64,000 bases of DNA from Spirochaetia bacterium (lineage in GTDB: Bacteria > Spirochaetota > Spirochaetia > DSM-2461), in NCBI GenBank assembly GCA_963666985.2, contig CAXXIA010000001.1, positions 800,001-864,000 of the forward strand. Reading direction: 5' to 3'. The notes under the pieces were generated by a model that was not told the DNA's origin, ran no database searches, and saw nothing but the letters and a program-made list of their open reading frames with translations. Positions 10,088-37,627 of this stretch are shown here, piece after piece (the first letter of the stretch is position 1; each line of letters opens with the position of its first letter). The position numbers and the translations under genes are program-made.

Positions 10088-10098
10088 TTATGCAAACT
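10071..10098. other. dif-like 28-bp tyrosine-recombinase site overlapping the recombinase start codon
   Basis: GGTTTACAAAG-GGATAA-TTATGCAAACT: 11-6-11 layout, imperfect inverted arms, right arm resembles the XerD arm TTATGTTAAAT. Confidence 0.55.
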
Positions 10099-10917
10099 TC
10101 AAGGGCCATGGATCGAATCTTGGGAATCGCCGACAACTATGAGATTGATACACGTCTCTACTGCCGCTATCTCCGGGAGACCGATCAAGAGGTCGGGGCC
10201 GAATCTTTGAAGGCTTGGGCTGGGTTTTTGGTCGGCGAAGGGTATGCCGCTGCGACGGTGAATCGGCGAATCTCCGCGATTCGTTCCCGGATTCGGACCC
10301 TCTTCGAGGAATCCGGAGATGAGGCCTTCGATGTTCTGGCTCTTTACAGCTTGGAGCGGGATTTGAAGCGGGTTCACGGGATGAAGATCAACTCGAAGGC
10401 CGTTGATCCTTCAAAGGTTCTTACGGCCGATGAGGTCCGCGCCGTTATCGCAAAGTGTTCACTTCGGATCGGTCTGATTGTGGAGTTTCTCTATACGACC
10501 GGCTGCAGGATTTCCGAGGCCTTGGGAGTGAGGCGGAAAGATGTGCGGCGCCACCGGGAAAACGTCGTGATTCGAATCGTGGGAAAAGGATCGAAGGAGC
10601 GGGTTGTCCGGATCACCGTCGGTCTTTTTTCCAGGATCACGCAAACACACCATGGCAAAGAGTTTCTGTTTGTAAACCTTTCCGGCGAACCGTACACCCG
10701 GCAATACATCGAGAGGGTGGTTCATGAGGCGGGAGAGGCGGCATTGGGGAGGCGAGTGACACCGCACTGCCTGCGGCATTCGTTCGCGACCGAGACGATC
10801 GAGAGGACGGGAAAGATTAAGGGTGTGTCCAAGTATCTCGGGCACTCATCTACGACGACCACGATGGATATGTACAACCAGGAACAGCTGGACTTCGTTG
10901 AAGTCCCGGAGCTGTAG
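10090..10917 (+). CDS. XerC/D-like tyrosine recombinase
   Basis: TGCRISE, GKGSKER, HCLRHSFA, LGHSS...TMDMY catalytic R-K-H-R-H-Y set; no arm-binding domain. Confidence 0.92.
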   Translation: MQTSRAMDRILGIADNYEIDTRLYCRYLRETDQEVGAESLKAWAGFLVGEGYAAATVNRRISAIRSRIRTLFEESGDEAFDVLALYSLERDLKRVHGMKINSKAVDPSKVLTADEVRAVIAKCSLRIGLIVEFLYTTGCRISEALGVRRKDVRRHRENVVIRIVGKGSKERVVRITVGLFSRITQTHHGKEFLFVNLSGEPYTRQYIERVVHEAGEAALGRRVTPHCLRHSFATETIERTGKIKGVSKYLGHSSTTTTMDMYNQEQLDFVEVPEL

Positions 10918-10926
10918 GGAGGGACT

Positions 10927-11118
10927 ATGGAGAAAGGAAAGACGTGCCAATACACCTACGAGGGAGGCGGTGATTATCGGACCGGCTGCGGAGGGAAATG
11001 TTCAATGGAAATGGTCCGGGAGATCGATCGCAATAACTACCGGCACTGTCCCCGGTGTGGCGGGGCGATCGTGTGGCCGGACCCGACGATGAGGAAAGGA
11101 AGGATAACTGATGGCTGA
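10927..11118 (+). CDS. Small zinc-ribbon phage protein
   Basis: TGCG...YRHCPRCG; GGAGG RBS. Confidence 0.6.
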   Translation: MEKGKTCQYTYEGGGDYRTGCGGKCSMEMVREIDRNNYRHCPRCGGAIVWPDPTMRKGRITDG

Positions 11119-11578
11119 TATGAACCACGCCGGTATGGTCGGCCGGCTCACGAAGGCTCCTGAGTTGAGTTATACACCAAGCGGGTGTGCGATTCTCCAG
11201 GGATGCATCGCGAACAACTACATGAAAAAGAAGGGTGATGCCTACGAGGATGAGGGTCAGTTCTTTGATTTTAAGATCATAGGACGCCGGGCTGAGAGGC
11301 TGGCGAGTTATCTTCATAAGGGTTCTCGGGTTGGATTGGAATACCAGCTTCGACAGGACCGCTGGACGGCTCAGGACGGAACGCCTCGGTCCAAGGTATA
11401 CCTTCTTGTTCAGAACATTCAGTTTCTCGACAGCAAGCATCAGGAGAAGACCGAGGGCGGCCTTGAGTACGATCCGAGCGGTGCACCCCGGACTATGGCC
11501 GAACGAGATGCCAGGGTTAGAGCTGAGCGTGACGGATGGAATCCGCGGCCTGATTTCGAAGACGATATTCCGTTCTAA
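11111..11578 (+). CDS. ssb: Single-stranded DNA-binding protein
   Basis: VGRLTKAPELSYTPSG, YLHKGSRV, acidic tail DFEDDIPF. Confidence 0.95.
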   Translation: MADMNHAGMVGRLTKAPELSYTPSGCAILQGCIANNYMKKKGDAYEDEGQFFDFKIIGRRAERLASYLHKGSRVGLEYQLRQDRWTAQDGTPRSKVYLLVQNIQFLDSKHQEKTEGGLEYDPSGAPRTMAERDARVRAERDGWNPRPDFEDDIPF

Positions 11579-11600
11579 AGAACTGCTCGGGGAGGGAAGT

Positions 11601-12518
11601 ATGGCACGAGGCAGAATGATCAATCAGAGAATAACCAGATCTCAAAAATTCGACGCCACAATCAGGGCGGATGAGGGTGCCGGTTTGCTTTATACCCTCT
11701 TGATTCCTTTTGCAGATCGCGACGGACGGCTTGAAGGAAACGCTTCAATTATTAAGTCAACTTGTTATCCAAGGTGGGATGAGATGCCGAAGAAACGGGT
11801 TTCCAACCGCCTTCAAAGGCTTCACGACGAAGGATTGATTCTCTGGTACGAAGTCGATGGTGAGAAGTATATCCAGATAACCGCTTTTACCGAGAACCAA
11901 GAGGGGATGAGGTACGAGAGAGAGAAGCCTTCCGCGATTCCTCCATGCCCCGAAGGTTTCACTTCGGAGACTGGCGGACGTACTCCGGCAACTGCCGGAG
12001 TTAATCCGGAGGATGACGGAAACAATCCGGCAAAAAATCGAGAAAATTCGACAAAAAGCGCTCTAAGTGGCCTGGAGGGGGATTGCGGAGTTACTCCGGC
12101 AACTGCCGGAAGTACTCCGGCTGAAATAGAAAGAGAAATAGAAATAGAAATTAAAGAAGAAGGAATGGCGGTCGTCGCCCAAGGCTCCGCCACGCCATCT
12201 CTCTACAAGGCCATTGAAGCGGCGTTTCTTTCACGGGTTGAAAAGTTCACCAACTACCAAAAAGAGGGCCAAGCAATCAAAGGGTTAATCAGCAAGGCTG
12301 AAAAGTGGTCTCCGGATGATCCGGAGAGTTTCATTTTTCAGGTTATCTCCATGTTCTTTACCCTTCGTCAGAAAGACAAGTTTTTCGGCGGGCAGCCTTT
12401 CACTCCATCAGCTCTCAATTCCTCGGGAATCTTCGACCGGGTAATGGTCCAGTTTGAAAACCGGAAAACCACGATCGATCCAGAGGTTGAGGCTTATCTC
12501 AAAGGGGTATCAGCGTGA
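11601..12518 (+). CDS. Phage replication initiator (replisome-organizer/O-like)
   Basis: Starts MARGRMI at ATG 11601 after GGAGG; ADRDGRL, EGLILWYEVDGEKYIQI; central iteron linker followed by EIEREIEIEIKEE. Confidence 0.8.
   Translation: MARGRMINQRITRSQKFDATIRADEGAGLLYTLLIPFADRDGRLEGNASIIKSTCYPRWDEMPKKRVSNRLQRLHDEGLILWYEVDGEKYIQITAFTENQEGMRYEREKPSAIPPCPEGFTSETGGRTPATAGVNPEDDGNNPAKNRENSTKSALSGLEGDCGVTPATAGSTPAEIEREIEIEIKEEGMAVVAQGSATPSLYKAIEAAFLSRVEKFTNYQKEGQAIKGLISKAEKWSPDDPESFIFQVISMFFTLRQKDKFFGGQPFTPSALNSSGIFDRVMVQFENRKTTIDPEVEAYLKGVSA
11960..12160. repeat. Iteron array plus A-rich tract, probable phage replication origin
   Basis: TACTCCGGCAACTGCCGGA at 11981 and 12092; degenerate copies at 11960, 12002, 12023, 12044, 12113 with 21-bp spacing; GAAATA repeats follow. 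Confidence 0.75.
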
Positions 12519-30153: not shown

Positions 30154-30768
30154 ATGGGAGAAATATTTCCGAAGAAAGACCCGTATGCTGAAGCTTTGGA
30201 GATACGGATATCGGAATTAAATCCGGGTGATTTTAATCAAGATGATTTGCCGGAAATTGAGATTGAGGATGGCGCGATGAGCGACGAAAACGACAGAAAT
30301 AGCAACACTTGGCCAACTATCCTCCTCGGGGAATTCCGTGAGTTGAAGGGCTGGCTCTCTGGGACCGATGGACGTGGCGGAAAAATCGGTTCTCTTGAAA
30401 CTCAGATTTCGGATGTCGCGATCGAAGTCCGTCATATCAATGACCATTTGAGCACTCTCACGAATACGCAGATTAAAGACCGGGCTCACAGCGACGCACG
30501 AGATAGCGCGATCGAGAATGAGATAGAAAAGACTGAAAAAAGACTCTCGACACAGATTTATAACGTTGCTGAGATTGGACGAGGAGCACACGAGAAAATT
30601 GATGAACACCTGAAGGAATTAGAGATCGCCAAGAAGGCCGAAGCGAAGGCGGAAGAAAAGAAAGAAGAGAAAAAAGAACGGACGGTCGGTCAGTGGCTGA
30701 CCATCGCCGGGATTATTGTCGCCCCGTTTATCGGGGCCGGTGCCACACTTTTGATTCTGGGAGGTTGA
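30154..30768 (+). CDS. Coiled-coil protein with C-terminal TM helix (lysis-region membrane protein)
   Basis: Heptad region and terminal WLTIAGIIVAPFIGAGATLLILGG; start may be ATG 30277. Confidence 0.6.
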   Translation: MGEIFPKKDPYAEALEIRISELNPGDFNQDDLPEIEIEDGAMSDENDRNSNTWPTILLGEFRELKGWLSGTDGRGGKIGSLETQISDVAIEVRHINDHLSTLTNTQIKDRAHSDARDSAIENEIEKTEKRLSTQIYNVAEIGRGAHEKIDEHLKELEIAKKAEAKAEEKKEEKKERTVGQWLTIAGIIVAPFIGAGATLLILGG

Positions 30769-30770
30769 AA

Positions 30771-31313
30771 GTGGATCATGGTTATTGTACGCAGGACCGA
30801 TTCGGATATTTCGGAGAAAGGTGGGCCTGTGCAATCACAACTCTTGTAATTGTTTTTGAGCATATCCGCCGGTATGTCATGAAGATGACCGAATGGTGGG
30901 TTTCTCAAGAAGAGATCGAGAGAATCTGCGGGCGTTTTCTTTTACTCGGGAATTCCCAAATCCAGCCGCCTTGTTATGTCGCAAACTACAAGGATCATGC
31001 CGATGTTTTCGACGGCGACAAGGTAGACGATGGATGGGGCGCCGACGCTGATCCGGAGGCCCATTTTTATATCCGGTCATGGAAATGGACGTTCGTTGAA
31101 ATCGCCGATGTGATGGGAGTCAATCTTGAAGACGCAATGGTGAAACGCTCCCTTTCTCGATACGGAATCCTTGTCGTCGATGTCGACGGGAACGTTTTCG
31201 ATAAGCACGTAAGCACTCATTTTGAACCGCTCCATTCAGGGAAAGTTATCTCAAACCCTGATCCAAGGCTCGAAGGATATCCCGAATATGAACGGCGGGC
31301 ATTGCCGGTTTAA
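30771..31313 (+). CDS. Putative C39-like cysteine peptidase, candidate endolysin
   Basis: Q...WACAITTL near N-terminus and THF...NPDP near C-terminus; GGAGG before GTG 30771; adjacent to holin. Confidence 0.5.
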   Translation: MDHGYCTQDRFGYFGERWACAITTLVIVFEHIRRYVMKMTEWWVSQEEIERICGRFLLLGNSQIQPPCYVANYKDHADVFDGDKVDDGWGADADPEAHFYIRSWKWTFVEIADVMGVNLEDAMVKRSLSRYGILVVDVDGNVFDKHVSTHFEPLHSGKVISNPDPRLEGYPEYERRALPV

Positions 31314-31322
31314 GGAAAAAGT

Positions 31323-31577
31323 ATGAACGAAGAGAAAAAAGAAATCCTGATTGAGGCCGCGAAGTCGGCCAAGAGTCCGAACGGCTTCCAGCGGTTCCTC
31401 GCCAAGATCGGAGCGTTCTTCGCCGTGAACAACGATGTGAACGAGAACACCGTCATGGGGCTGGCGTTTTCTGTTGTTTTGATCATTGCTGTTTTTGACT
31501 CTACCGTCACGTTGGATAAGTTCGGGATACTCGCGGGACTTGTTGCGGGTTGTTTCGCCTTAAACCTTAAAAAATGA
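31323..31577 (+). CDS. Putative holin (2 TM)
   Basis: 84 aa, two hydrophobic helices, basic C-terminus. Confidence 0.6.
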   Translation: MNEEKKEILIEAAKSAKSPNGFQRFLAKIGAFFAVNNDVNENTVMGLAFSVVLIIAVFDSTVTLDKFGILAGLVAGCFALNLKK

Positions 31578-31585
31578 GGTAGGAA

Positions 31586-32068
31586 ATGAATGAAAAGATT
31601 TACCGCCGTCTTATTCTTGGTTTGTCTCTTCTCGCCGTTCTTGGGATCGCAGGAACTCTCTTTTTCGGTATCCGAAGCGCAGATGATGCTCGCGCTTACC
31701 GGGAGCTCATTGAGCTTAATCGATGGATCGATAGAACACGCGACGGAGCTGAAGAGATCAAACTCAACCTTGATCGAATCGTCGGAGAGCAGCGCGAGTA
31801 CATTGGAGAACTCGAAGAAAATAATCGACAGCTCCGAGACGACAATATCCTACTTATCGACAACAATCGATCGGACAGAGCAGAACTCCGAAAATCTCGG
31901 GAATATATCGACGGACTTGAATCTAATCTCGCAGGACTTAAATCAAACAACGCAGAACTTGAAACCGTCCTTTTGGGAATCCTCTCTCGGAACGGGTTTG
32001 CTGTACATGATGGGCTCATCACTGGGAGCGGCTATGGGGGCAACGGCGGGAGCGGTGGCGGGGGATAA
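31586..32068 (+). CDS. N-terminally anchored coiled-coil protein (i-spanin/Rz-like)
   Basis: Basic N-terminus, TM LILGLSLLAVLGIAGTLFFGI, long heptad region; GAGGT RBS. Confidence 0.65.
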   Translation: MNEKIYRRLILGLSLLAVLGIAGTLFFGIRSADDARAYRELIELNRWIDRTRDGAEEIKLNLDRIVGEQREYIGELEENNRQLRDDNILLIDNNRSDRAELRKSREYIDGLESNLAGLKSNNAELETVLLGILSRNGFAVHDGLITGSGYGGNGGSGGGG

Positions 32069-32159
32069 ACCCGGCGCAATCGTCGGCGCGGCGGCCGGGG
32101 CGGCTTTCGGAACGGTCATCACGACAATCGTTCGAGAAGTTCTAAATAGGAATGAATAG
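31590..32159 (+). CDS. Overlapping +1-frame protein: signal peptide, coiled coil, C-terminal glycine zipper (spanin partner candidate)
   Basis: MKRFTAVLFLVCLF..., GAAMGATAGAVAG...GAIVGAAAGAAFG; AGGA RBS at 31581-31584. Confidence 0.65.
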   Translation: MKRFTAVLFLVCLFSPFLGSQELSFSVSEAQMMLALTGSSLSLIDGSIEHATELKRSNSTLIESSESSASTLENSKKIIDSSETTISYLSTTIDRTEQNSENLGNISTDLNLISQDLNQTTQNLKPSFWESSLGTGLLYMMGSSLGAAMGATAGAVAGDKPGAIVGAAAGAAFGTVITTIVREVLNRNE

Positions 32160-32281
32160 CGAGCAACATCTCTGATGAGGGACTGGATTACACGGGATCG
32201 AAGAAGTGCGGATCCAAGTGATAAATGGAAGGGCCTGTAGAGATAGGAACGCGATTCTGATCAGAAACAGATAACGAAAAA

Positions 32282-32406
32282 AGACGGAGACCCGGGGAAA
32301 GCCATCCCCGAGCAGGTGTAGGCGCACCTACGGAATAGTCCGCCACCGTCTATCATATTTTCGGTGGAAAATTCCATGCTCTTGATCCGTCATGGAGGAA
32401 AGAGTG
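32282..32406 (+). promoter_or_regulatory. Structured RNA leader of the adenine methyltransferase
   Basis: Closing stem AGACGG/CCGTCT around three hairpins; alternative CCACCG/CGGTGG pairing; TCCATG/CATGGA hairpin over the SD. Confidence 0.55.
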
Positions 32407-33195
32407 AAAACGCCTTTGACTTATTACGGAGGGAAGCAGCAGCTTGCATCGAAAATTGTTGAACTTATACCGGAGCACCGGCTTTACTGCGAACCGTTTG
32501 TGGGAGGAGGGGCCGTATTTTTTAGAAAAGAACCTTCGGAAGTTGAAGTCATTAACGACATAAACAATGAGCTCATCAATTTCTACGAAGTCATCAAGCA
32601 CGATTTCGTGAGTCTTGAGAAAGAAGTTCAAATCAGTCTTCACAGTCGAGACCTTCATCGGCAGGCATCGGTCATTTACAACAATCCGGACATGTTTCCC
32701 AAACTCAAACGAGCCTGGGCAATCTGGGTGTTGGCTTCCCAATCGTATGGAGCAAAACTGGATTCCTCCTTCGGATATGACAGATCCGGAGCGACGTCTA
32801 AAACCATTCGTCGGAAACGGGATGCCTTTACTGTCGACTATGCCTTTCGTCTTCAGGATGTGCAAATCGAATGCGCCGATGCACTCCGGATTATTCGGAG
32901 TCGAGATTCCGCCGATTCTTTCTTTTATTGTGATCCGCCATATGTTGGAACCGATATGGGCCATTATGACGGGTACACCGATGATGATTTCCGAGCGCTT
33001 CTATCGGTACTCGAAGAGATCGAAGGAAAGTTTATTCTTAGTTCTTTCCGAAATGCTGACCTTTCTAATGTTGCTACCCGGAAGGGCTGGGATTCCTTTG
33101 AAATCCGAATGTCCAAGCCAATGTCGAGTAATCGTGATGGAACCAAAAAATCGAAAGTTGAAGTACTGACAGCAAATTTCCCGATAGATTCTTGA
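32404..33195 (+). CDS. D12-class N6-adenine DNA methyltransferase (orphan, Dam-like)
   Basis: YYGGK, EPFVGGGAV, INDIN, DPPY; likely GTG start 32404 after GGAGG (alternative ATG 32392). Confidence 0.93.
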   Translation: MKTPLTYYGGKQQLASKIVELIPEHRLYCEPFVGGGAVFFRKEPSEVEVINDINNELINFYEVIKHDFVSLEKEVQISLHSRDLHRQASVIYNNPDMFPKLKRAWAIWVLASQSYGAKLDSSFGYDRSGATSKTIRRKRDAFTVDYAFRLQDVQIECADALRIIRSRDSADSFFYCDPPYVGTDMGHYDGYTDDDFRALLSVLEEIEGKFILSSFRNADLSNVATRKGWDSFEIRMSKPMSSNRDGTKKSKVEVLTANFPIDS

Positions 33196-33285
33196 AGCCG
33201 GTTAAAACAGGATATCCTTCTTGGAATCTCCTGTTGAGATTTGGACGTACTTGATAGGTATCGTTCAATCTTCGATATTAGGGAT

Positions 33286-34017
33286 ATGTGTGTTAATGCT
33301 TCACTAGTCGAGATTGCAGAGATTATCGAAGAAATCTATGGAGTAAAAATGCCTCAAGAACACTTCGAACAACCTGCCTATTATGTCTCGGCCTATGAGC
33401 ATCCCAAATGGCCGATCTTGAAACAGGGAGAGACCGAGACCTTTAGACCTGCCGCCTGGGGGCTTATACCATCATGGATAAAGGATACTGACGCAGCCTC
33501 TTCGATTAGGGACAAGACCATTAATGCCAGACTTGAAAGTATTGATTCCAAACCATCTTTTCGATCGTTAGTTGATTCTCGAAGATGCGGTGTTCTATTG
33601 GATAGCTTTGTTGAATGGAGAAGCTTCAACGGGAAAAAATATCCTTATCGAATAGGATTACCGGAAAATCGTCCTTTCTTGATAGCTGGGTTATGGGATA
33701 GATGGCACGTGTCCGAAAGCGATTCAATGATTGAAACATTCACTGTAATCACAGTTGAAGCTCAAGGTATACCAGCACAGGTGCATAATACTAAACTTCG
33801 GATGCCCTTGATTCTTAGTCGCACCGTTGGGCAAGCTTGGCTTGATTTAGATAGGTCGTTTACAGCATGCAAAGATTCCATAACACCACTTTTTCGACCA
33901 CTGGAAGCATGGCCAATTTCCCGGGATATTTCTGTGAGGGGAAAGGACAAGAACGTTCCAGGTATTCTTGATCGTTTTGAGTATCCAGAATTACCGGCCC
34001 TTGAGCCGGTTCAATGA
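33286..34017 (+). CDS. SOS-response-associated peptidase (SRAP/YedK/HMCES family)
   Basis: Start at ATG 33286 gives catalytic Cys2; [30 protein letters not shown]. Confidence 0.9.
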
Positions 34018-35270
34018 GCATAAGCCACTGGAAGATCGTTCCAACATGTGGTGTATCTCGGAGATAAGAATTCTCTGCGCATGTGCCAGTCCGCATCAAA
34101 ACGTGTGGCTCGACAATGCAATGCGTCCCGACCGAATTTCGCTGTAACTTTGTCTACAGCTTCCATTATTGCAGCTTTACGAGGATCAGGCTCTCTGAAT
34201 AAATCGCCTTGGCGACCTGATCGGTTCTCGATCCCCGAGAGGAAAACCGAAACCTTTTTGTATTTATAACCGGGCTTGAAAATCTCTTCGATACCTTTCT
34301 TGGCGGCTGCAGCTAGAGTAGGGAGGTAGTCGGTAGGTTCGTCGAGCGTAATGGTTCTATTTGCAGAGTATTGACGATCGCTTTTCTTGAAATAGTTTGT
34401 TGTCAATATCACATCGACGATTGAACAAATCGAATCCTGTGCACGAAGTTTCTCTGCCGCTCTCATTGCGTAGTCGACTACAGCTTCCTTGAGATCGGCC
34501 AGATTAGTTACCGGATGACCGAAACTTTTTGAACTCATGATACCTTTTTTGGCAGGCGGTACTTCTTCAAGTGAGATGGAAGGGCGACCTCGAAGTTCCC
34601 ACACGATCCGTAGACCTGTAATGGTGAGGCGTTGCTTTGCCCATGCATCGTCGACATTTTTCAGATCAAGGGCTGTGGTAATTCCTCGTGTCTGTAGGCG
34701 TGTCGCAAGTCCCCGGGAAATACCCCATATGTCTTCAACGGGTGTTTTGTTCAGAATGCTATTTATCGTGTCTTCTTCAGGGCCAAGGGTAAATACTCCG
34801 TCAGGTTTGTTTTTTGCATGCTTTGCGGCGATTTTTGCAAGTACCTTTGTCTGGGCAATTCCTATCGATGTTGGGATACCGATTCCGAAATACACATCGT
34901 TTCGGAGTGTACGGCACAGTATCTCTGGACTATCCGGATGTCCGTCGAGAATCAGAAAAGCCTCATCAATAGAATAGACTTCCATCTTTGGTACTTGTGA
35001 GTCCAGAAGGTCCATTATCCGCCGGGAAAGGTTTGCGTATAGTGCATAATTAGAACTGAACACGGTGATGTCTTCCCTCTCAATTATTTCACGTGCTTTG
35101 AAGAGGGGGAGTCCACGTGGAATACCGAGATTCTTTGCTTCTCTGGAGAGCGCTACAATGCAGCCATCATTATTAGAGAGAACAACAATCGGTTTGTTTT
35201 TTAGATCCGGCCGAAAAACTCGTTCGCATGCCGCGTAAAACGAATTGCAATCGATGAGCGCAACGGTCAT
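34011..35270 (-). CDS. umuC: Y-family DNA polymerase V subunit UmuC
   Basis: [37 protein letters not shown]. Confidence 0.96.
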
Positions 35271-35707
35271 CGGCGGTTGGCTGCCCGGAAGCTTGTAATG
35301 GAATGAGTGACCACACCGATGATAGTTAAGTCGGAGGCATCATCGATGGCTAGTACCGGATATGCAGGATTCTCAGGAGCTAAAACGTACCGCCCTTGGT
35401 CAACTCGCAAACGTTTGACTGTAAATTCACCATCTAAGGCCGCGACAACAATATCACCCGGCCGTGCTAGTAGCCCCCGATTTACCACAAGAAGGTCGTT
35501 ATTTTGAATCCCGGCTCCAATCATCGATTCGCCTGTTACTCTCATAACCACTGTTACTGGTGGATCTGCAATGAGGAGGCGGTTGAAATCCAATTCTTCC
35601 TCCGCATAGTCGTCCGCTGGCGAGGGAAAACCAGCAGGAACACAAACCGAGAAGCTCGGGATAGACTGAGTTGTTTCTTTCTCAAATACTGCGGACATAC
35701 TATTCAT
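35267..35707 (-). CDS. umuD: DNA polymerase V subunit UmuD (S24 peptidase)
   Basis: PAGFPSPA cleavage site, GESM, FTVKRL. Confidence 0.95.
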
Positions 35708-35897
35708 ATGTTATGTATAATAGATGATATTATGTGATGCAATACTGATATCGAAAAAGGGGGAGGCGTTGGTAGGCCATGGCTCTTTTTTCACAGATAA
35801 TCATTCATAATCAGAGAGGAATCAAAGAAACTCGCCTCTGTTAAGGGCTCGATTTTAGCGCCTAATATGGATCTAAATGGTGCCGAGTTTTTCTTCA

Positions 35898-37160
35898 TTA
35901 GTCACGGAAAGAGCCCTCAATCATTCTCCGTTGGGCCTGAGCTACAATCTGAAGATCCTGAGGAAGCATATCATCATAGTGTTCAGTCATTTCATCCGAG
36001 TCATGGCCAGTGAATCTCTGAATCACAGCGTTGTCGACCTGCGCCCGCCGGAGGAGTGTGTTGAAATATCGTCGACTTGAGTGGAAAGTTATGTTTCGCG
36101 CTTCTCTGTCTTTAATCTCTATGCCTTCCTCTTCCATACGAGTATATAGCCAATCTCGAAGGCGGTTCGAAGAGATCGGGTGCTCTTGACGGGGATGAAA
36201 GGAGAAAACATATCGTGCGGAGCCAGTGAGGTATGGCTCCAGGGCCGTACGGAGTTCTTGGGTAATCGGAATATTTCTGGTGTCTTTATCTTTTACGAGT
36301 GTTCGAGATTTTACCCTGGAATTATATTGTCTCGAAATAGCCAGATAGGACATCTGAACCTCCCTATCACCTTGTCGTACTATGATGTCCCGAACATCGT
36401 CAGTGAAGAGCCCGCAGACTTCGCCAATTCGGAGCCCGGTCAGAAAAGCAACACGAACTGCGGTGAAGTATAGCCTATCTCTCTCTGTAGAAAGATTGCC
36501 AAGGGTGGGGTCTAGGAGGCGGCCGCCTTCTGCTAACGTGAGTCCTCCTCGCTTGTTCTTTTCAATTGCTAAGGGTCGAACCATTCGCCAAGGATTGAAA
36601 AAATCGGCCTTGGGGTTTCTCATCTTTCGCTCTCGTTCATACTCGCTCATCATCCTTGAGTAGACCGATTTTCGATTATTGGCTGTTTTATGTGAGGCCC
36701 CGTCGGTGATCCACTTCATAAGCAATTGTTCGCAATCAAAAGGACTGATATCTTCAATAGGCCGATTCCCGTGGTAAGGGCGGATATGCTGTTCATAAAC
36801 ACCGCGGGCGTGGGAAATGTAGGACTCAGTTATCCCAGGACGATCGGCAGGAGAATGAACCAGTACGTCTCGAACAAAAGAGGAACGGCGCCAATCCCAG
36901 AAATGATGCACTTCGGCCCATTCCTCAAGCGTTGGGGAGTCAGATTCTTCTAGTCCGCCTGATTCAAGAAGCTGTATGCAGTAAGCCTCGGCCTCTCGTC
37001 GCGTCCGCGCACGATCTTTCTGGCGAGTGTAACCAATTCCCGTAGACTTCGAGATACGTTGTCCATCTGTGTTGTAGATGTAACAGTACCAGACAATTGC
37101 GTCCTTATTTTTTCGTGAATAAAGACTGTATTCTTTCTCTCGATAGGCCGCCATCTTCAC
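35898..37160 (-). CDS. Prophage tyrosine integrase
   Basis: N-terminal arm-binding WYCYIY..GQRISKSTG; TGLRIGE, FHSSRR, GHDSDEMTEHY; start may be ATG 37154. Confidence 0.93.
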   Translation of the reverse strand: MKMAAYREKEYSLYSRKNKDAIVWYCYIYNTDGQRISKSTGIGYTRQKDRARTRREAEAYCIQLLESGGLEESDSPTLEEWAEVHHFWDWRRSSFVRDVLVHSPADRPGITESYISHARGVYEQHIRPYHGNRPIEDISPFDCEQLLMKWITDGASHKTANNRKSVYSRMMSEYERERKMRNPKADFFNPWRMVRPLAIEKNKRGGLTLAEGGRLLDPTLGNLSTERDRLYFTAVRVAFLTGLRIGEVCGLFTDDVRDIIVRQGDREVQMSYLAISRQYNSRVKSRTLVKDKDTRNIPITQELRTALEPYLTGSARYVFSFHPRQEHPISSNRLRDWLYTRMEEEGIEIKDREARNITFHSSRRYFNTLLRRAQVDNAVIQRFTGHDSDEMTEHYDDMLPQDLQIVAQAQRRMIEGSFRD

Positions 37161-37187
37161 GCCCCCAGGCGGATTTCACGATCATTC

Positions 37188-37206
37188 TGATGTCATATTT
37201 GATGTC
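37188..37206. repeat. Candidate integrase arm-type sites
   Basis: TGATGTC twice, 12 bp apart, between int and the ssrA 3' end. Confidence 0.4.
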
Positions 37207-37208
37207 GC

Positions 37209-37237
37209 AAAAAAAAGGTAGCCGTAAATAGCTACCC
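37209..37237 (-). terminator. Rho-independent terminator downstream of ssrA
   Basis: GGTAGC/GCTACC stem followed on the minus strand by an 8-T run. Confidence 0.8.
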
Positions 37238-37253
37238 TGTCAAGAATTAAAAA

Positions 37254-37627
37254 TGGAGGTGGGGGGAATCGAACCCCCGTCCGAAAGGGCGTCTGACGCA
37301 CATCTACAGGTTTAGTCCACCGATGGATTTTCGAGCACGGGTTAGGCGGTTGACGTCCGCCCGGGCCTTATCCTGAAAAAATGTCCCGCTTAGGCTTCAG
37401 GCCGGATAAGCGGTCAGTCCCGGTTTTTGGCGGAGCATCCGTCCCTCGGAACAGCGTGACGGAGATCCGTGGCAGCTATGATTAAGCGGCCAGGGCGAGG
37501 GCGCCGTCGAACTCGACGACGATCTCATCTTCTTTTTTGGCACTTAAAGGTGTGCGCCGGTTTAAGGAGTCGGCTCTCCACCTGCAGTACGACCTACGGA
37601 ACCTCCCGTCGAAGCCAGGGCACCCCC
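37254..37627 (-). ncRNA. ssrA: tmRNA; tag reading frame 37541-37482 encodes AKKEDEIVVEFDGALALAA*
   Basis: 5' GGGGGTG...TTCGAC, 3' T-arm GGGTTCGATTCCC and CACCTCCA acceptor end; tag ends ALAA; next to smpB. Confidence 0.96.

Follow-up and report, generated by a model that had tools for sequence, protein, structure and literature searches.

A probable second reading frame along the full length of an i-spanin-like gene in a spirochaete prophage

The late operon of a prophage in a Spirochaetia bacterium (GTDB lineage Bacteria; Spirochaetota; Spirochaetia; DSM-2461) ends in a locus, here called A/B, in which two reading frames of the same strand start four nucleotides apart and overlap over 479 nt. 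The locus lies in the window analysed here, a stretch of 64,000 nucleotides (GenBank assembly GCA_963666985.2, contig CAXXIA010000001.1, positions 800,001 to 864,000 of the forward strand), and all coordinates are positions of this window unless stated otherwise. We consider the locus to be real and unusual. Frame A is a genuine gene whose predicted product is a type II membrane protein resembling inner-membrane spanins (i-spanins), frame B is probably coding as well, and what the two products do together is proposed from sequence. We give about even odds (a probability of about 0.5) to the reading that the dual coding is genuine over its full length, with B most likely translated from a ribosome-binding region that it shares with A. 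That A and B would together make up a spanin free of a lipid anchor, i.e., a heteromeric coiled coil encoded in two frames of one DNA stretch with a glycine-zipper hairpin in the outer membrane, is put forward as a tentative possibility.

Both frames open in the heptanucleotide ATGAATG (31586-31592), with ATG-A at 31586 and ATG-B at 31590, just downstream of the TGA (31575-31577) of an 84-codon gene. Open reading frame (ORF) A (31586-32068, + strand) encodes 160 aa, and ORF B (31590-32159, +), in the +1 frame relative to A, encodes 189 aa; the overlap extends from 31590 to 32068. The ribosome-binding region common to A and B (31576-31584, +), as read from the sequence, comprises GAGGT (31576-31580), with GAGG(T) located 6 nt 5′ of ATG-A and 10 nt 5′ of ATG-B, and AGGA (31581-31584), located 5 nt 5′ of ATG-B. 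Direct reading and the ORF coordinates thus agree with the original prediction, made from the letters of this DNA, which had described two frames opened by ATGAATG, each with its own Shine-Dalgarno-like element, and a partner that is longer than the i-spanin-like gene and starts at its 5′ end. Logan contigs from two runs of one sample cover positions 31200-32400 with no mismatch and no gap, at low depth (3.4 and 4.2), and the identity of the contigs of both runs with the sequence makes an assembly indel unlikely. A promoter scan of the stretch returned no promoter, and a terminator scan returned three terminator-like sites for 3.0 expected, so that a 7-bp hairpin with a T-rich run at 31637-31665 (+), 50 nt inside both frames, is probably a chance occurrence. 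The antisense strand is also open from 31696 to 32022 (−), for 108 codons that would specify a Ser/Arg-rich product.

Gene A is identified by its homologues, their alignment, hydropathy and AlphaFold2 (AF2) modelling. A HMMER pass over 1.84 billion representatives (E ≤ 0.001) retrieved three proteins, namely A itself and two unnamed proteins from metagenome-type assemblies, P0002 (169 aa, E 2e-9) and P0003 (137 aa, E 5e-8). Their alignment keeps the N-terminal membrane helix, GIAGTxxFGIRxAD, and a C-terminal motif, NNxELxTVLLGIxxRxGxxV, at residues 121-140 of A (31946-32005, +), in which N121, N122, L125, T127, V128, L129, L130, R135, G137 and V140 are invariant; conservation of this motif indicates that translation stays in frame A beyond the T4 run (31971-31974). 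The membrane helix covers approximately residues 7-32 (hydropathy windows of at least 1.6 over residues 5-32) and is preceded by Lys/Arg-Arg, so that the positive-inside rule predicts a topology with the N terminus inside and the C terminus outside. The AF2 model, built on this small alignment, is a single helix from residue 2 to 135 with a mean predicted local distance difference test score (pLDDT) of 79.6, exceeding 90 for residues 50-120, followed by a disordered Gly-rich tail (residues 141-160). The heptad power of A is 6.47 (p 0.001 in shuffles). Hydropathy, the two homologues and the modelled helix all support the earlier description of frame A as a transmembrane anchor followed by a coiled coil.

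Gene A shows three of the features by which i-spanins are recognised, a position in a lysis cassette, an N-terminal transmembrane helix and a helical periplasmic domain; it has no match to a spanin family in Pfam, PHROG or NCBIfam, and no gene for a cognate outer-membrane lipoprotein accompanies it. The closest look-alikes in an atlas search, which we treat as leads only, score at best 0.88 for A (viral hypothetical proteins of about 128 aa) and 0.76 for B. Internal methionines are absent from all three proteins of the A family, in which a unit of about 35 residues (EYIGxLE ... NN) is repeated internally, its Asn-Asn pairs being invariant and falling on heptad positions.

ORF B, a probable second product delineated by its open frame and by signals in wobble positions, can be divided into three parts. 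The leader (residues 1-20; 31590-31649, +), identified as Sec-type by hydropathy tests, starts with MKR, followed by a hydrophobic core that contains Cys12, and a cut after Ser20 would presumably satisfy the -3/-1 rule (Pro at -5, Leu at -3, Ser at -1). Lipoboxes were judged by a PROSITE-type rule. The residue at -1 of Cys12 is Val, and B thus lacks the lipoprotein signal that marks outer-membrane spanins (o-spanins) and unimolecular spanins (u-spanins); Cys-containing signal peptides of the host mostly carry S, G or A at -1 (115 of 145), with the Cys at position 14 or later in all of them. The leader is followed by an amphipathic heptad region (residues 34-134; 31689-31991, +), detected by its power at period 3.5, and Ser and Thr account for 38 of the 114 residues from 22 to 135. 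The C-terminal part (residues 140-189; 32007-32159, +), for which Pfam, NCBIfam and coding scores are informative, is a candidate two-helix glycine zipper. An ATGATG, 2 nt past the conserved motif of A, marks its beginning, and it continues for 91 nt beyond the A stop, so that only the disordered and unconserved tail of A overlaps it. This tail of B is rich in Gly and Ala and carries no net charge, the middle part of B being acidic, and it includes a C-terminal hydrophobic window at residues 162-181 (hydropathy 1.92).

Residues 137-179 of B are the part that aligns to glycine-zipper models. In Pfam, the tail matches Gly-zipper_YMGG (3.5e-5), Gly-zipper_Omp (7.5e-5) and DUF6861 (2.9e-6), all just below the cut-offs; the bit scores for PF13441, PF13488 and PF13436 are 23.9, 23.0 and 16 for gathering cut-offs of 28.9, 25 and 27, respectively (E 3.5e-5 to 0.011). 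NCBIfam models of zipper lipoproteins (the zipper region of OmpA-family lipoproteins) give 5e-4 and 0.022, far below their cut-offs. Of the parts ascribed to B by the original prediction, the leader, Cys12 and the Ser/Thr richness are all present, and the zipper, in a Gly/Ala-rich tail, is matched at sub-threshold scores.

Evidence for B comes from comparison with what the A protein imposes on the other frame. The second codon positions of B are the third positions of A, and the hydrophobic pattern of B is hence the pattern of T-ending codons in A. The null expectation was obtained by shuffling the synonymous codons of A with the +1 frame kept free of stops. The maximal 11-residue hydropathy of the B leader (first 25 residues) is 2.89, a value reached in 0.2% of shuffles (p 0.002; p 0.0008-0.0045 with models of codon-pair and next-base context) and by none of 229 genes with an N-terminal membrane segment when read in the +1 frame (99th percentile 2.37). 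The heptad power of B over residues 34-134 is 11.75, with a single sharp peak at period 3.5, for a shuffle mean of 4.1 (p 0.0023; context models, p 0.0003-0.0008). None of 900 genes reaches this value, nor does any of 434 windows as heptad-periodic as A, whose maximum is 7.41. The procedure is well calibrated, p ≤ 0.01 being obtained for 0.7-0.8% of 900 random genes and 0.9% of the 434 heptad-periodic windows. The mirror test, in which features of A are compared with those imposed by the B protein, gives weaker values (p 0.033 and 0.008) for A, which is known to be real, so that B, judged in this way, looks no more accidental than A. Both features of B, leader and heptad pattern, go beyond what the A protein imposes, a constraint that is seen within a single sequence.

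Not all properties of B carry such weight. Its richness in Ser and Thr largely follows from A (p 0.03-0.07), so that the earlier statement that both frames look protein-like throughout gains weight from the leader and the heptad pattern and loses some of it on this trait. The low Pro/Gly content (p 0.0013) and the acidic charge (0 of 4000 simulations) were discounted as evidence because they rest on the low third-position G of A, which is merely at the 5th percentile of prophage windows. From 32007 onwards, frame B outscores A (by 6.2-6.6 nats across 32007-32065), and the 84 nt beyond the A stop score like the median 3′ end of real genes. The chance product of openness, leader and heptad pattern (approximately 1e-2 × 2e-3 × 2e-3) is about 4e-8 per gene, i.e., on the order of one chance case per ~10^7 genes scanned. 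This product leaves out the location in a spanin slot where +1 partners are the rule, the lack of a lipoprotein ORF in the prophage and the zipper-like end.

By gene order, the A/B locus occupies the spanin slot, the last gene position of the late operon, since the order is the same as in a second cassette of the same genome (G000:C2:2560093-2561829, minus strand, loci L006/L018) that carries an Rz-like i-spanin and a lipoprotein. This C2 cassette encodes a 93-aa transmembrane coiled-coil protein and, in this order, a paralogue of the endolysin-like protein of our prophage, a 133-aa four-helix membrane protein, a 99-aa i-spanin and an o-spanin. The 99-aa protein, composed of a transmembrane segment and a coiled coil, matches seven PHROG families of Rz-like spanins (best E 1.5e-5), and the o-spanin, an overlapped +1-frame ORF with a canonical lipobox, matches phrog_456 (E 0.006). 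A metagenome copy (L017) has the gene order of the C2 cassette up to the end of its contig. The position relative to the paralogous cassette thus corroborates the prophage lysis and spanin setting that had been supposed for A/B. No ORF with a strict lipobox is present in any frame of window positions 5000-37300, according to a scan that recovers the C2 o-spanin as positive control, together with 77 ORFs on contig C1, the contig that contains the window. The prophage therefore has an i-spanin-like gene without a canonical o-spanin or u-spanin, and the original remark that a clear lipobox is lacking proves correct for B, with Val at -1 of Cys12, and can be extended to the whole prophage. One host carries a canonical and a non-canonical spanin solution.

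Several observations weigh against full-length dual coding. Among 797 confident ORFs of 120-200 aa in the genome, nine, A included, contain a same-strand ORF in an alternative frame over at least 90% of their length (four of the nine in the +1 frame), and 12% of the synonymous shuffles of A keep the +1 frame open; the openness of B alone is weak evidence. For the open frame over residues 2-130, an exact calculation gives 8e-4 to 1.2e-3. A 184-aa alternative-frame ORF (32615-33169, +) inside the methyltransferase gene of the prophage also illustrates that long off-frame ORFs are common in this genome. Three-periodic Markov models (orders 2-5) favour A by 7-14 nats over 31590-32006; the smallness of this margin is borderline unusual (14 of 215 controls have one as small; p 0.087 relative to prophage windows). 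No homologue of B was detected among 1094 candidates of similar length or three shorter ones, tblastn found no match in 50,697 phage records, and 60 relatives yielded only one weak match. The exact start of B is not conserved in P0003, whose residues 2-3 are Arg-Asn, making a start codon at +4 impossible, and this protein ends 6 residues past the conserved motif. Since the locus was chosen on account of the protein-like appearance of B, the p values are in part post hoc. Recognition by a protein language model is low for both products (1908 for B and 2104 for A, for a mark of 2300). Finally, B lacks a lipobox, and its Cys is at position 12, whereas no host signal peptide with a Cys has it before position 14.

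Searches for relatives of the locus found nothing usable among the 60 relatives, the 38 genomes of the family and scans of viral, genome and metagenome contigs. The 401 genomes of the phylum yielded weak coiled-coil matches only (E 9e-4 or worse), and a profile of the endolysin-like protein run on 401 genomes of the class also returned nothing usable. One viral match (L004) was dismissed as a head-scaffold-like protein encoded between portal and capsid genes.

Should B be translated, the following mechanism can be envisaged. The membrane helix of A would hold it in the inner membrane, the N terminus facing the cytoplasm, and a helical rod of about 105 residues with a conserved hydrophobic tip would extend into the periplasm. 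B would initiate 4 nt downstream of the A start and be exported by Sec; its amphipathic helix would be encoded, heptad for heptad, by the nucleotides of the rod of A, and its C terminus would form a glycine-zipper helical hairpin. If the helical regions of A and B pair in parallel, the zipper hairpin of B and the tip of A would both sit at the end distant from the inner membrane. There, the hairpin could insert into the outer membrane, replacing the lipid anchor of an o-spanin, and, after peptidoglycan degradation, the A-B complex would disrupt or fuse the outer membrane. Passage of the hairpin through the Sec translocon and its entry into the outer membrane would presumably proceed as for zipper lipoproteins. 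The export of B, its pairing with A and the action on the outer membrane are steps that we infer.

Modelling of A together with B, which the original prediction had suggested, offers some support for the pairing. A complex of A 31-160 with B 22-189 scores 0.48, compared with 0.00 for the best of three controls, and thereby passes a mark that 116 of 157 solved complexes, but also 2 of 215 mismatched pairs, attained; at scores of 0.60 or less, however, just 18 of the 157 solved complexes reached the mark, together with both mismatches. At least 82% of the contacts recur between runs, and the partner pLDDT is at least 65. It is a weak pass; the controls were unrelated proteins and not coiled coils, so that the heptad register alone may explain it.

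The most serious competitor, which we nevertheless consider unlikely, is that A functions alone and that B is open by chance, its zipper likeness being compositional and its wobble patterns a rare coincidence. The base rate of 9/797 speaks for it, as do the lack of a B homologue, zipper matches that are all below curated cut-offs and the fact that the protein collection records only the frame of A as a called gene; in addition, 6% of the open frames located between genes equal the score of B beyond the A stop, and a scan that picks protein-like oddities introduces a selection bias. Such a coincidence would, however, have to produce two independent and calibrated test results of about 0.002 each, as extreme as none of the 229 and 434 controls, and to do so at a position that normally includes a +1 partner, in a prophage devoid of lipoprotein ORFs and behind a start with a good ribosome-binding context. 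A restricted version of the second frame, which strikes us as quite unlikely, would combine A with a short overlapped gene made of the last 41-50 codons of B, starting at the ATGATG (32007/32010) or at the ATG at 32034. Its product would be a small glycine-zipper membrane peptide, holin-, antiholin- or disruptin-like, and the 139 open codons upstream would be coincidental. This would fit the turn of the coding signal to frame B only at about 31985-32007, the ATGATG placed 2 nt past the A motif, the overlap of the zipper with the disordered tail of A alone, the GGGAG located 5 nt upstream of ATG 32034 and the end of P0003 directly after the motif; moreover, overlapped +1 genes are the commonest spanin layout in the counts of one survey (228 of 677 phages; PMC6139136). 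The short gene nonetheless leaves the leader and heptad signals of the first 135 B codons unexplained, and only a weak purine run precedes the ATGATG, whereas a start at 32034 would remove part of the zipper-matched region (residues 141-177). None of the three shorter candidates is a small homologous protein, and a peptide that lacks a signal sequence would not get beyond the inner membrane and would hence be no substitute for an outer-membrane partner.

Two further explanations would join the frames into one product. In one of them, a programmed +1 frameshift late in A, at the five-G run (GGC-GGG-GGA) directly 5′ of the A stop (TAA, 32066), would generate, in addition to A, an A-B fusion with a hydrophobic helix at its C terminus, acting as a one-chain spanin-like bridge. 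A +1 slip at this site would read DKPG and then the second zipper helix, and frame B does remain coding-like beyond the A stop. This scenario is nonetheless highly improbable: there is no stimulatory element or precedent at the site, both homologues terminate in frame A, the zipper models already match at residue 141, 5′ of the supposed slip, and the signals in the first 135 codons of B are again left without explanation. The other, which is barely credible, supposes a single gene broken by an indel near the T4 run (31971-31974) and originally composed of the N-terminal part of A and the zipper of B, or else that B alone is the gene. A first codon-usage scan had hinted at a clean frame switch near 31970-31990, but its sharpness was inflated by scan windows that, from 31991 onward, included the A stop codon; furthermore, A scores 7-14 nats better upstream, and every database member of the family is in the A frame. 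We rejected the reading as a single gene with an indel or fusion on the grounds that residues 127-140 of A, past the T4 run, are conserved in both homologues and that the assemblies are free of gaps.

Full-length dual coding, if genuine, would set A/B beside several known systems without making it a member of any. In the survey of 677 phages, spanins were embedded in 182 cases, overlapped in 228, separated in 118 and unimolecular in 58, and were not found in 91; as far as the text of this survey goes, every class is defined by a lipoprotein signal, partners with other anchors are not considered by the authors, and embedded o-spanins usually start at 0.4-0.5 of the i-spanin length (PMC6139136). 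A/B resembles lambda Rz/Rz1 and P2 LysB/LysC in its position at the end of the cassette and in the type II inner-membrane protein with a helical periplasmic domain, and it resembles two-component spanins generally in that the partner lies in the +1 frame of the same DNA and the second frame is missed by gene callers. In contrast to Rz/Rz1, B has no lipobox, is longer than A, starts at 0.01 of the length of A and ends in a zipper hairpin; in contrast to the i-spanin of the paralogous C2 cassette, A has no sequence match to Rz-like families. Unimolecular spanins, as outlined for T1 gp11, also combine an export signal containing a Cys, a middle part of periplasmic length and a C-terminal hydrophobic segment, all of which B has on its own. 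B differs from them by the lack of a lipoylation signal and by its overlap with a conserved i-spanin-like gene, which u-spanin loci lack. We did not file the locus as a spanin, in spite of its position and the anatomy of A, because the lipoprotein signal and family matches are lacking.

Outside of the spanins, B recalls the glycine-zipper outer-membrane lipoproteins (YiaD/OmpA-family, Gly-zipper_Omp, YMGG), to whose zipper region its residues 137-179 align. The zippers of such lipoproteins sit in the outer membrane. B departs from them by its sub-threshold scores, by the lack of a lipobox, by the C-terminal location of the zipper after a helical region of 120 residues and by being encoded by a phage. 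Disruptin (gp28 of phiKT) provides, in the published description, a precedent for phages without spanins using another small protein at the last lysis step; unlike B, whose tail is uncharged and whose middle part is acidic, it is a cationic peptide of antimicrobial type (10.1101/515445). As in accounts of long overprinted gene pairs, the second frame is mostly accommodated at the wobble sites of an older, conserved one whose codon usage dominates, whereas A and B differ from the other pairs in these accounts in that their products would be structurally alike (two amphipathic helices sharing one register) and are presumed to be partners. No published example of a spanin anchored by a zipper came up in the literature searched, which did not include the supplementary tables of the 677-phage survey (PMC6139136), where unusual architectures may be listed. 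A paper dealing with both spanins and a glycine zipper assigns the zipper to the helix of a pinholin and not to a spanin.

Neither gene callers nor lipobox screens would detect a zipper-anchored partner in a full-length +1 frame, and, if such a partner is real, the criteria used to search for spanins would have to widen beyond the lipoprotein signal. The i-spanin gene would then lie wholly inside the gene of its partner, the reverse of the Rz/Rz1 arrangement, and the locus would be a rare example of two helical proteins that interact and are encoded in register in one DNA stretch. It would also offer initial insight into the way in which prophages of spirochaetes, free-living or host-associated, open an unusual envelope. 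If B is instead open by chance, there remains an i-spanin-like orphan family without a lipoprotein partner, in a genome that also holds a canonical spanin pair.

Upstream of A/B, the end of the late operon comprises, in order, a gene for a 204-aa protein, a Cys/His orphan and an 84-aa membrane protein, with spacings of 2-9 nt. The first of these (30154-30768, +), immediately 3′ of the tail-fibre gene, encodes a coiled-coil protein with a C-terminal membrane helix (hydrophobic window at residues 181-204) that has weak family matches only. The orphan (30771-31313, +) probably starts at the GTG at 30771, which is preceded by a clear GGAGG 6 nt upstream. It belongs to an endolysin-like family of three members, the others being a paralogue on contig C2 (L018, 1501-2028, − strand; 63-64% identical) and the metagenome copy (L017, 186-689; 56% identical), and is marked by invariant Cys and His residues. 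It has no match in Pfam, NCBIfam or PDB (no match in the PDB profile search), and its AF2 model is unusable (pLDDT 47). From these residues and its position, the orphan may be a cysteine peptidase serving as endolysin, and the three proteins probably form a new family of peptidoglycan peptidases. In Leptospira, prophage lysis modules have been described, in outline, as comprising predicted spanins and a putative cysteine-protease endolysin (PMC8705779). The 84-aa protein (31323-31577, +), with hydrophobic windows at residues 39-80, is holin-like by position and hydropathy, with no family match in Pfam, PHROG or NCBIfam; multi-transmembrane proteins fill its slot in both related cassettes.

The prophage spans approximately 6800-37250 of the window and encodes an anti-repressor, the small and large terminase subunits, portal, protease, major head, adaptor, tail and tape-measure proteins, as well as a tail fibre of 1229 aa. 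It adjoins a transfer-messenger RNA (tmRNA) gene (37254-37627, minus strand), and tmRNA genes are a classic integration site. The host genome contains three genes for FlaA, the sheath protein of periplasmic flagella, above the family cut-off, a trait that identifies the host as a spirochaete. The right arm (32392-37627) carries genes for a D12 adenine methyltransferase, a SRAP protein, homologues of UmuC and UmuD and a tyrosine recombinase. Within the element, positions 10090-12518 include another integrase-like gene (PHROG integrase, E 3e-35) together with one resembling replication initiators, suggesting that the element may consist of two tandem mobile elements or be a composite.

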